14,054 bases of DNA from Candidatus Heimdallarchaeota archaeon. Lineage in GTDB: Archaea; Asgardarchaeota; Heimdallarchaeia; Heimdallarchaeales; Heimdallarchaeaceae. Below, in pieces: positions 548 through 2,812 of the stretch (its first letter is position 1; each line of letters opens with the position of its first letter). Under the pieces are notes generated by a model that was given only the letters and a program-made list of their open reading frames with translations, was not told where the DNA came from and ran no database searches. The position numbers and the translations under genes were made by a program. The DNA lies in assembly GCA_018238545.1 (NCBI GenBank), contig JABCTC010000065.1, forward strand, positions 1 to 14,054, in the 5' to 3' direction.

Positions 548-1720
548 TTAACCAAAAATACTGCGAAATTCTCGTTTTAAATCTGATTGAAAGCCAAAAA
601 AAGAATCTAATAATCTTCCATCTGTATAATGCTTTAACATGGCTTTTTCAGCTAAATATGGTCGCAATGATTGATTTTCAAGGAAATATTTTGCCTGAGA
701 ATTGAATTCATAGTCTAAGAAGCCTGAATTAAGATTAATATTAAATTTCTTTTTAATTGTTCTTCTTTTTATTTCATCAGCTAAAGAGCTCTTTTCAATT
801 GTAATATAGTAATAATTGTCTACATCAAAAATTCTTGCCTTATGCTTAAGCAATTGCTCTTTCTTCTTCTTTGGATCACTTCCAAATCTTTGGGGTTCTC
901 TATTCACACCTATGAATGTTGAACCAACTAATGAAGCGAGAACATCTGAGGCAGGATTCTTTGAATCTCTCATATTATATTGTAGAGCTCTTGTTAAGTT
1001 AGTAGAATATATAACTAAATCGTCGATTCGTTCTTGTAAATTGAAGATTCGAAGAAAGTATCTAATTCTTGCAATATTTGCCTTTGACATTGCAGTTCTA
1101 TCAAAATCAAACCAGATACAAAACAATTCTTTTTTTAAGCAATATTCAGCAAGTTTTCCTAAAGATTGAATGTCGTACCTTAGAGGAATAGGAATGAAAA
1201 TAGGTTTCTTATTTTTATAACTGAGAATCTCTATAACATGGTCTAGATATTGTATATATTGATTAACATCAATCTGCTCTTTCTTCTTGGAGATATCTGG
1301 AATTCTTATACTGGGAGCTAATACAAAAGGATTTGAATAAATATAGTGATAGTCCAAATATCCTGTAATTTCATCAAGATTCTGAAAATGGTTAAACGGG
1401 TTAAAAGCAAGAGTTGAAGATAAGACAAATGGGTATTCTCTGAACCATTCTTTATAGTTTAGTTTATCTTTTAGGTCTTTAGAACTTTGTAGAGCCATAA
1501 TCTGATTTATATCTGATACTCGAAACTCTTTTGAACTTTCAAGAATCGTAGTCTTCTTATCTAGTTGAAAATCACTAAACAATGATTCTGTAATATGTCT
1601 GGCATCAGTTACTTTCATTGGTCTGTCTACAGTCAATGGTCCTAATCTGAACCGTTTAATTGCATAATCAGAGTTATTATCTGAAATCGTTTCTTTAATA
1701 TTCAAACTGTACATTCTCAC
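548..1720 (-). CDS. Uncharacterised 390-aa cytoplasmic protein, possible divergent TGT-like (tRNA/DNA-guanine transglycosylase-like) TIM barrel
   Basis: Long ORF overlapping the upstream PIN gene. The N-terminal 'KRFRLGPLTVDRP' recalls the TGT beta-hairpin/'TP' start. Alternating strand-like segments (FVLAP, PIFIPI, IWFDF, VIYSTN, GSTFIG). No canonical DSGG motif or Zn-binding Cys. The CDS is secure, the fold call is tentative. Confidence 0.6.
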   Translation of the reverse strand: MRMYSLNIKETISDNNSDYAIKRFRLGPLTVDRPMKVTDARHITESLFSDFQLDKKTTILESSKEFRVSDINQIMALQSSKDLKDKLNYKEWFREYPFVLSSTLAFNPFNHFQNLDEITGYLDYHYIYSNPFVLAPSIRIPDISKKKEQIDVNQYIQYLDHVIEILSYKNKKPIFIPIPLRYDIQSLGKLAEYCLKKELFCIWFDFDRTAMSKANIARIRYFLRIFNLQERIDDLVIYSTNLTRALQYNMRDSKNPASDVLASLVGSTFIGVNREPQRFGSDPKKKKEQLLKHKARIFDVDNYYYITIEKSSLADEIKRRTIKKKFNINLNSGFLDYEFNSQAKYFLENQSLRPYLAEKAMLKHYTDGRLLDSFFGFQSDLKREFRSIFG

Positions 1721-2261
1721 AGACCTTTATTCTTTCTATAGCGTCTTTTATTGTTTGTTTTGGAGCTCTAAACTTAGAATTATCAATCATGTTTATAATT
1801 GTTGTTGCCTCATCTTTTGCAAATATATCATAATCACAGCAACAAACAGAGATGAAACCAATAGTTCCTATCATTTTTGGAATAAGTTCTTGAAAGTTGT
1901 GTTCAACGTATTTTCTACCACCTCGATCATCAACAATAAACTGGAAATTCTTTTTTTGGAAAGCAAGAATATAGGATATTGCTATAACTTCTGTTTCACC
2001 TTTATTGATTTCTTCTTCTGAGAAAAATGCTCTTAATATCTCTCCAAGCTCATGAAAGTGAAACTTCTGGATTTTGTTCTCTAGAAGTGTGGATAGCTTT
2101 GCTCTACTAAATGATTCCTTTATTTCTGAGATTACAACTGTTCCAGCTATGAACACTAATCTTTGACAATTTAGAATTTTTACTAGCTCTACTGATTGTT
2201 TGATGTCATCGATGAAACAAATAAAGAAACTGCTATCTGCAACAATTGAACTATATGTCAT
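1695..2261 (-). CDS. PIN-domain ribonuclease (VapC/DUF3368-like)
   Basis: IVADSS (D9), VISEI (E46), GETEVIA (E89), IVDDRGGRK (D111/D112) and the trailing IGTIGFI motif typical of DUF3368-like PIN proteins. Acidic tetrad is intact. Confidence 0.85.
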   Translation of the reverse strand: MTYSSIVADSSFFICFIDDIKQSVELVKILNCQRLVFIAGTVVISEIKESFSRAKLSTLLENKIQKFHFHELGEILRAFFSEEEINKGETEVIAISYILAFQKKNFQFIVDDRGGRKYVEHNFQELIPKMIGTIGFISVCCCDYDIFAKDEATTIINMIDNSKFRAPKQTIKDAIERIKVCENVQFEY

Positions 2262-2812
2262 TGATTCTTTATTACCTCATTATATCTTTTTTCTGTAATA
2301 ATTCTTTTTTTCAGTAGACTTCCAGCAATTATTTTTCTTTTATCAGGTTTTAGAAGTTCTTCAGAGACATCTGATTTTTCCTCAAATGTTGGATAAGTAA
2401 TGTAAACAAGAAATAACAATTCTTCTCTCGTTAATCTATCATAGATTTCACGAATTAATTTCATCGAAGCTAATAGTTCTTTAAATTTGTCATTTTGAGA
2501 GTAATCAGATAGTAGATTTTTGTAAATCTTTTCTCCATTTTTTGATAATGATATCTTACCTTTAATTCTTTGAAAAGGTTGACTATGATAAACTGGAAAA
2601 TCAATTACCTCGCTAATATCACTAGAAAAGGGTCCTAACTGATGCTTTACAAAATAAGTCACATCATTCACATATTTAGCAGTTCTAGACAATATAAACA
2701 TCTCTTTCTGCAAATGAATTATTGACTTTATTGGTCTATTGACAATACCTAAAAGCAGGATAATATAACTCTCAAGTATTTCGTAATCAAGTGCTTGATC
2801 ACTTTCTGACAT
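2258..2812 (-). CDS. Panacea/DUF4065 (SocA/YwgA-like) winged-helix antitoxin-like protein
   Basis: 'HLQKEMFIL' (LQK 34-36), 'FVKHQLGPFSSDI' (GPFS 60-63), 'SLSKNGEK' wing and 'ELLFLVYITYP' match this family's pattern. ATGA 4-nt overlap with the PIN gene. Confidence 0.7.
   Translation of the reverse strand: MSESDQALDYEILESYIILLLGIVNRPIKSIIHLQKEMFILSRTAKYVNDVTYFVKHQLGPFSSDISEVIDFPVYHSQPFQRIKGKISLSKNGEKIYKNLLSDYSQNDKFKELLASMKLIREIYDRLTREELLFLVYITYPTFEEKSDVSEELLKPDKRKIIAGSLLKKRIITEKRYNEVIKNQ

Follow-up and report, generated by a model that had tools for sequence, protein, structure and literature searches.

Gene content and linkage of the locus

The window analysed here, a stretch of 14,054 nucleotides (positions 1 to 14,054 of contig JABCTC010000065.1, assembly GCA_018238545.1), belongs to Candidatus Heimdallarchaeota archaeon and harbours three adjoining minus-strand open reading frames (ORFs), here called the trio. 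Predicted to encode an antitoxin, a PIN-domain toxin and a protein with the fold of tRNA-guanine transglycosylase (TGT), these genes constitute a real, conserved, mobile and apparently undescribed archaeal three-gene module, a toxin-antitoxin (TA)-like conflict system with a TGT-fold regulator. The three genes are the following:

2258..2812, minus strand: gene 1, 184 aa, predicted antitoxin with a DarG-C-terminal-domain-like (Panacea-type) winged helix and a short C-terminal UPF0175-like helical motif
1695..2261, minus strand: gene 2, 188 aa, putative PIN ribonuclease of COG2405/DUF3368 type, predicted toxin
548..1720, minus strand: gene 3, 388-390 aa (390 aa for the whole ORF), TIM barrel of TGT fold that lacks the canonical catalytic and zinc residues, predicted to serve as trigger or sensor subunit

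A first-pass annotation described three co-oriented genes coupled by an ATGA overlap and a 26-nt overlap. The ORFs and the ATGA overlap of genes 1 and 2 (2258-2261) are read directly from the sequence, while the overlap of genes 2 and 3 measures 26 nt only with the GTG start at 1720, and 20 nt with the ATG at 1714 (388 aa). The latter start is no less likely, given that a database protein of 388 aa with 98% identity begins there. The trio has a length of 2.3 kb and a GC content of 30%, against 34% for the genome, which places it within the lowest 2% of genome windows.

Conservation of the trio neighbourhood, proposed as a check in the same annotation, is evident across a wide set of archaeal loci. 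Among the first 38 loci, 31 possessed all three genes in order. Iterated profile searches over genomes and contigs extended the set to 62 loci with full-length gene 3; gene 1 lies within 1.5 kb in 62 out of 62, and genes 1 and 2 are both intact in 58. The arrangement is co-directional in 47 loci, gene 3 is divergent from genes 1 and 2 in eight, convergent in two and otherwise placed in one, with identities down to ~13-20%. Metagenome loci with enough upstream DNA, which are partly redundant with the genome set, carry both partners in 49 out of 49 cases. The reverse check gave a similar picture, as 14 of the 15 strongest gene-1 matches in Asgard genomes adjoin gene 3 or its remnant. Pairwise identities of the trio genes correlate (rho 0.79-0.82), and the FastTree trees of the three genes share 16-22 of 22-27 well-supported splits, compared with at most 2 at random. 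This linkage and the congruent trees show co-inheritance and are not evidence of function. Besides genes 1 and 2, no conserved neighbours of gene 3 were found. The prediction of a three-chain complex, which had been proposed as a check, gave no answer: the score was 0.75, against 0.74 with chain 2 replaced, and this uninformative result was not used as evidence.

Folds and conserved residues of the three proteins

Pfam gave no significant match for any of the three window proteins, and therefore their family labels were established by structure and by distant homologues. The predicted model of gene 3 (pLDDT 89.7) shows a TIM barrel with an N-terminal three-strand lid and a C-terminal hairpin/helix extension, as in TGT (PF01702). 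Its top five structural matches all belong to the TGT superfamily: archaeosine TGT (1iq8; Z 19.5, rmsd 4.2, 311 aligned residues), bacterial TGT (Z 18.3), QTRT2 (Z 18.2), Cap10 (Z 14.2) and DpdA (Z 13.8). Unrelated barrels score Z 11.3 or less against the same model. A Foldseek search also matched the TGT fold, with E 3e-8. The profile alignment of gene 3 with TGT is weak yet colinear, from the N-terminal lid through the C-terminal helices. The suggestion that the 390-aa protein is a divergent TGT-type barrel without DSGG or zinc motifs is thus borne out, including the Foldseek match to TGT that it anticipated.

The aspartate of the DSGG motif at strand 3 is absent from the gene-3 alignments; position 103 is T/S or variable, and DSG occurs anywhere in the protein in only 3 out of 67 sequences. 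The zinc site CxCxxC was found in none of the 67 sequences, and the position of the zinc-binding histidine is variable. Three profile alignments place Gly266 of gene 3 at the conserved glycine preceding strand 8 and Gly271 opposite the nucleophile aspartate of TGT. Gly271 is itself conserved (G in 66 out of 67 sequences). Since gene 3 by alignment lacks the DSGG motif, the nucleophile and the zinc motif, canonical base exchange appears unlikely. Gene 3 nonetheless retains a set of near-invariant residues (E61, K172, D205, N241, D259, R296, Y303, Y305, N331, E338 and K359) and is basic, with a median pI of 9.1.

Relatives of gene 3 number 145 at the 50% cluster level. Searches with gene 3 against Pfam, NCBIfam and PADLOC returned nothing significant, and the PDB sequence search was empty. 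No homologue was found in viral contigs, phages or plasmids in searches of limited sensitivity, and the viral fold search gave distant TGT-like proteins only. Longer, fused forms of gene 3 were not found either, which is weak evidence. Archaeosine and queuine TGTs, QTRT2 and DpdA share the fold and a colinear profile alignment with gene 3 at 7-11% identity. In contrast to these proteins, gene 3 is accessory and patchy instead of housekeeping, and its DSGG motif, nucleophile and zinc ligands are absent. Membership in the Dpd system is not indicated, with no dpdB/dpdC or Que genes alongside gene 3 and the catalytic aspartates absent. The host genome possesses a separate canonical archaeosine TGT and QueC. 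Further divergent TGT-family genes (345-373 aa), with the DSG motif, occur beside canonical TGT in Archaeoglobales and Thermococci genomes (L133, G303:C3; L140, G311:C82), and genome G303 also carries a bacterial-type TGT (L127).

Gene 2 was named a PIN nuclease in the first-pass annotation, and its conserved residues agree with this. The acidic active-site residues in 62 sequences are D9 (D in 56, N in 5), E46 (62 out of 62), E89 (E in 59, D in 3), D111 (D in 59, N in 3) and D112 (D or E in all 62), and the complete set is intact in the window copy. Distant members show a clear DUF3368 match. The corresponding Pfam family PF11848 has no match in the window gene, weak matches in 2 out of 32 close members and clear ones in distant members. 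The window copy also has a weak match (E 6.6e-7) to the PADLOC model PDC-S70, a single-gene PIN candidate. As judged from these signatures, gene 2 is a predicted PIN domain of COG2405/DUF3368 type, and the intact active-site residues suggest RNase activity.

Gene 1 was modelled with high confidence (pLDDT 94), and its best fold match is the C-terminal domain of DarG in 7yk3 (Z 11.2, rmsd 3.9, 147 aligned residues), the next match having Z 8.2. Weak matches to the DarG HMM, restricted to DarG profile positions 177-310, are in line with this fold match. Gene 1 possesses the motifs LQKE..F and H..GP.S, and K36, G60, G93 and Y137 are invariant among 69 sequences. The earlier description of gene 1 as Panacea-like can be refined. 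Gene 1 has a conserved G60-P61-x-S63 where Panacea has GPV, but none of 31 gene-1 members matches Pfam Panacea at E 0.1, and no PanA chain is among the listed fold matches. Distant members of gene 1 match Pfam UPF0175, a family reported solely beside COG2405 PINs (PMC5499597). Gene 1 therefore carries two antitoxin-type signatures, and the most fitting description is a winged helix of DarG-C-terminal type followed by a UPF0175-like tail.

Genes resembling gene 1 were also found outside the trio. Three distant gene-1-like winged-helix genes lie within 12 kb at L120 (G024:C12:130000-150000), two of them directly downstream of ~430-aa proteins resembling HD-domain phosphohydrolases, so that the antitoxin-like fold occurs there with another partner. 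This arrangement resembles the YwfO/YwgA pairing. A ~320-aa genus-conserved protein (G000:C86:91554-92045, with orthologues in most congeners) carries a weak gene-1-like domain (E ~1e-6), and hence the gene-1 fold also has a vertically inherited member in the host. A second, shorter gene-1-like gene is present 2 kb from a complete trio (L173:9527-9991).

Distribution, mobility and flanking sequences

Gene 3 was found in 0 out of 23 congeners and 0 out of 29 family genomes searched, most of which are less than 90% complete. The RadB-like gene adjoining the trio in the window is present in 15 out of 17 congeners. Three close relatives have the RadB-like gene followed by a conserved 159-aa host gene in place of the trio (directly in two of them, after one small gene in the third), and a fourth close relative has it followed by an unrelated AAA-ATPase pair. 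The site immediately downstream of the RadB-like gene, where the trio is inserted, is variable.

Genomes with the trio comprise 13 out of 300 in Asgard archaea, 16 out of 251 in the phylum of Archaeoglobales and 4 out of 251 in the phylum of Bathyarchaeia. The trio is also present in records of DPANN, Thermoplasmata, Thermococci and Nitrososphaeria, and in three records labelled as bacteria, which may be misbinned. The closest copies to the window trio (35-49% identity) belong to other classes and phyla, whereas the copy from its own family is 16-25% identical. GC content is lower than in the flanks in 44 out of 46 loci. The trio is a mobile cassette, patchily distributed across archaea. Two records (L006 and L007), labelled as Huberarchaeum and its host Altiarchaeum, have a near-identical trio with the same gene-3 frameshift, which represents either host-symbiont transfer or a binning artefact.

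The genes flanking other copies of the trio include restriction-modification (RM) enzymes, Hma, PDC-S01, DUF1156, EVE, integrases and transposases. The features flanking the trio in the window are the following:

2846..2866, minus strand: TATA-like box with two short perfect palindromes overlapping it, possible promoter/operator; palindromes not above chance
1..245, no strand assigned: one end of a MITE-like multicopy non-coding mobile element, flanking the trio and outside it
3140..4249, minus strand: RadB/RecA-like ATPase, conserved host gene (TIGR02237, E 1e-14)

The TATA-like box sits 34-40 nt upstream of gene 1, and two overlapping perfect 10-mer palindromes lie over it at 2849-2866, with imperfect palindromes further upstream at 2959-2980 and 3039-3061. 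The upstream palindromes noted at first sight do exist; nevertheless, they do not exceed chance expectation, with four centres against 1.7 expected in a shuffle test (p ~0.09, not significant) and a best arm of 5, compared with 5.4 in shuffled sequence. The idea of a conserved operator palindrome upstream was rejected for the window, and 67 loci show a slight excess only (5.6 against 5.3). Rfam and sigma-70 scans were uninformative.

The structured, mobile-like block seen on one side of the trio proved to be the end of a ~400-bp multicopy element, and it is not part of the trio. Window positions 1-245 match the genome at 31 places, most of them contig ends, with identities of up to 99%, and two full copies of 401 bp without a long ORF were located (G000 C21:11426-11826 and C43:96164-96563). 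One ~100-bp end of this element was also found apart from the remainder and is perhaps common to longer elements. On the other side, membrane proteins are present as annotated, but the first gene upstream of the trio is the RadB/RecA-like ATPase, and the membrane proteins lie beyond it. Three abutting genus-conserved genes occupy 3140-6374: the gene of the RadB/RecA-like ATPase, whose N-terminus is long and acidic, is joined by those of a multi-pass membrane protein of 218 aa and of a membrane-anchored protein of 492 aa that has no family match; the site directly downstream of this block is an insertion hotspot. Positions 8580-13203 encode two tandem, paralogous-looking secreted proteins of 740-760 aa with C-terminal membrane anchors and asparagine-rich repeats typical of parallel beta-helix proteins.

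Proposed function and relation to known systems

The distribution of broken genes differs between the members of the trio. PIN is broken with genes 1 and 3 intact at L118, L177, L178 and L258, and gene 3 is broken by a frameshift or stop with PIN intact at L005, L006, L035 and L114. These breaks lie at different positions, and a programmed frameshift in gene 3 was rejected on this ground. Gene 1 is frameshifted only where PIN is already gone (L065, with gene 3 intact), and it survives alone at L119, while the family relative L117 has all three genes at the same site. No intact PIN without an intact gene 1 was found where the contig has room. An intact PIN is thus always found with gene 1, yet occurs beside broken gene 3, which suggests that gene 1 is the antitoxin and that gene 3 is dispensable. 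We tentatively read these patterns as those of a PIN toxin, its antitoxin gene 1 and a dispensable activator, gene 3.

Related two-gene systems have been described. UPF0175 (COG2886) and COG2405/DUF3368 PIN proteins form predicted type II TA pairs (PMC2701414; PMC5499597), and as in these pairs, the DUF3368-type PIN of the trio lies directly downstream of a gene with a UPF0175-like motif. However, the antitoxin of the trio is longer (~185 aa), with the UPF0175 motif fused to a DarG-C-like winged helix at the N-terminus, and nearly all loci have a linked third gene of TGT fold. Where COG2405 PINs occur in three-component systems (PMC5499597), the other parts are instead a helix-turn-helix (HTH) protein and a DUF955 protease. 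Similar to DarTG, gene 1 has the toxin-binding fold of the DarG C-terminal domain, over nearly its whole length (PDB 7yk3). Unlike DarTG, it has no macrodomain and no adjacent DarT, its neighbours being PIN and gene 3. Third genes are not general in PanAT loci (Kurata et al., PMC8832971), whereas the third gene of the trio is constant.

The nearest analogues are Cap10 of type IV CBASS and P4 beta/TIM-B. In type IV CBASS and P4 gop-beta-cII, proteins of TGT fold have taken on regulatory roles, which by analogy gives a precedent for reading gene 3 as a trigger. Cap10, a TGT that lacks zinc, binds a deazaguanylated CD-NTase and retains the catalytic aspartate (bioRxiv 10.1101/2025.04.06.647259; PDB 9ntn). 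Like Cap10, which is repurposed to regulate a defence protein, gene 3 combines the TGT fold with the lack of a zinc site. Nevertheless, Cap10 keeps the nucleophile and base-reading aspartates, which gene 3 by alignment does not, and it depends on the QueC-like Cap9 and on a CD-NTase whose N-terminus reads M(G/S)G. Trio loci have none of these, the M(G/S)G N-terminus occurring in 0 out of 69 and 0 out of 62 of the partners of gene 3.

The second precedent, gop-beta-cII, is a validated anti-phage system (PMC9122126), and a 2026 preprint, which also lists TIM-B effectors, brings P4 beta (PF14350) together with the TGT fold (bioRxiv 10.64898/2026.10.19.760177). The trio, like P4 gop-beta-cII/TIM-B, couples a TGT-related TIM barrel to a toxin in a small conflict module, a likeness that is a functional analogy only. 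In contrast to gene 3, TIM-B is said to keep active-site-equivalent residues (bioRxiv 10.64898/2026.10.19.760177), and the listed TIM-B effectors include neither a PIN nor a winged-helix partner, both of which the trio possesses. Gene 3 also differs from TIM-B in aligning end to end with archaeosine TGT, N-terminal lid included. Membership of gene 3 in PF14350 was rejected: none of 47 gene-3 members has a PF14350 match in Pfam, the cross-HMM comparison gave a best E above 0.1 and an HHalign probability of 0.3% over 135 columns, and a PF14350 search misses the trio in five genomes that carry it. D205 of gene 3 lies opposite the invariant strand-6 aspartate of the P4 beta family in a weak profile alignment; this residue is possibly shared and is absent from canonical TGT.

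The comparison with databases and literature revealed no named system of this composition, as the first-pass annotation had supposed; the literature search, which covered few subscription papers, found no description of the gene combination. The trio is probably an undescribed triggered-toxin system, directed against viruses or responding to stress. Building on the observed folds, residue conservation, linkage and mobility, we infer its toxicity, binding, trigger and antiviral role as follows. The PIN protein would be an RNase toxin that gene 1 holds inactive as its antitoxin, a role suggested by the gene-loss patterns and by the UPF0175/COG2405 and DarG precedents. Gene 3 would be a TGT relative that lost base-exchange chemistry and acts as a trigger: on binding either the antitoxin itself or a cue that is a nucleic acid or resembles a nucleobase, it would release or license PIN. 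RNA cleavage and growth arrest would follow, most plausibly as abortive defence against viruses or other mobile elements. It is quite conceivable, and our working view, that the trio is such a horizontally moving three-component TA-like system of archaea with gene 3 as its trigger. Neighbours such as RM enzymes, Hma, PDC-S01, DUF1156, integrases and transposases speak in its favour. A bolder version, which we consider doubtful, is an archaea-centred immunity in which a catalytically rewired descendant of archaeosine TGT activates PIN via a DarG-like adaptor on sensing 7-deazaguanine-modified viral DNA, a nucleobase signal, or tRNA that is damaged or unmodified.

Several points weigh against the working view. 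Broken copies of gene 3 are few, and assembly errors could account for them. The assignment of the nucleophile position derives from a weak profile alignment (HHalign probability 0.6-1.6%, E 0.03-0.1) anchored by the conserved glycine and predicted secondary structure. Many trio copies sit among housekeeping genes, and the defence-island enrichment, proposed as a check at the outset, is modest: neighbours match 269 PADLOC models against 176 for a random control (103 proteins per set), a crude measure. Finally, gene 3 keeps near-invariant polar residues and so may be enzymatic; it could have a ligand pocket or a novel activity.

Under one rival explanation, which we judge unlikely, gene 3 is a constitutive negative regulator, a second antitoxin or chaperone like P4 beta/TIM-B, which restrains PIN together with gene 1 until an invader disables gene 3 and so activates the system. 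Such a role would agree with the toxicity of P4 Gop without beta, with TIM-B as a TGT-related barrel proposed to repress many different effectors, and with an intact gene 3 accompanying PIN almost always. Against it stand the four loci with an intact PIN beside a gene 3 frameshifted or stop-interrupted at different positions; moreover, gene 3 falls outside PF14350, and the trio already includes a dedicated antitoxin-fold protein.

It also seems improbable that gene 3 is a working enzyme whose active site has moved (D205/N241/D259). Such an enzyme would excise or transfer an RNA or DNA base, and thereby mark the PIN substrate or act as a second toxin, which gene 1 would block in the way the C-terminal domain of DarG blocks DarT. 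By alignment, gene 3 lacks the two catalytic aspartates of TGT as well as the zinc site, and no QueC or Dpd genes lie alongside it. L065, a single case, keeps an intact gene 3 despite a frameshifted gene 1 and a lost PIN, which argues against a toxin. Nonetheless, near-invariant polar residues are located at or near the ends of strands 6 and 7, the protein is basic, and the domain that gene 1 matches best by fold binds a toxin. The link between genes 1 and 3 (62 out of 62) is tighter than that with PIN, and gene 1 adjoins gene 3 in the divergent order.

A selfish addiction or general stress-response module without antiviral role, in which gene 3 links PIN to a cue from the host, for instance unmodified tRNA or the level of nucleobases, is quite unlikely: the copies between housekeeping genes, the modest defence-gene enrichment and the archaeosine TGT and QueC of the host, which make 7-deazaguanine metabolism available as a possible cue, speak for it, but the distribution of the trio, patchy, low in GC, often decaying and next to conflict genes such as RM and Hma, is what defence systems typically show, and addiction does not need a conserved 390-aa third gene.

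The trio is a compact, strictly conserved, archaea-wide module with no Pfam annotation and weak PADLOC matches, and it includes a new TGT-fold protein family. Copies in methanogen-containing, Thermococci, Archaeoglobi and Nitrososphaeria lineages make it directly testable. Were gene 3 the trigger, as we tentatively propose, the trio would show a TA pair wired to a nucleic-acid or nucleobase sensor, a mechanistically different case beside Cap10 and P4 beta. The archaea-centred immunity outlined above, if true, would add to Cap10 and P4 beta a third case in which the TGT fold was independently recruited into immunity.

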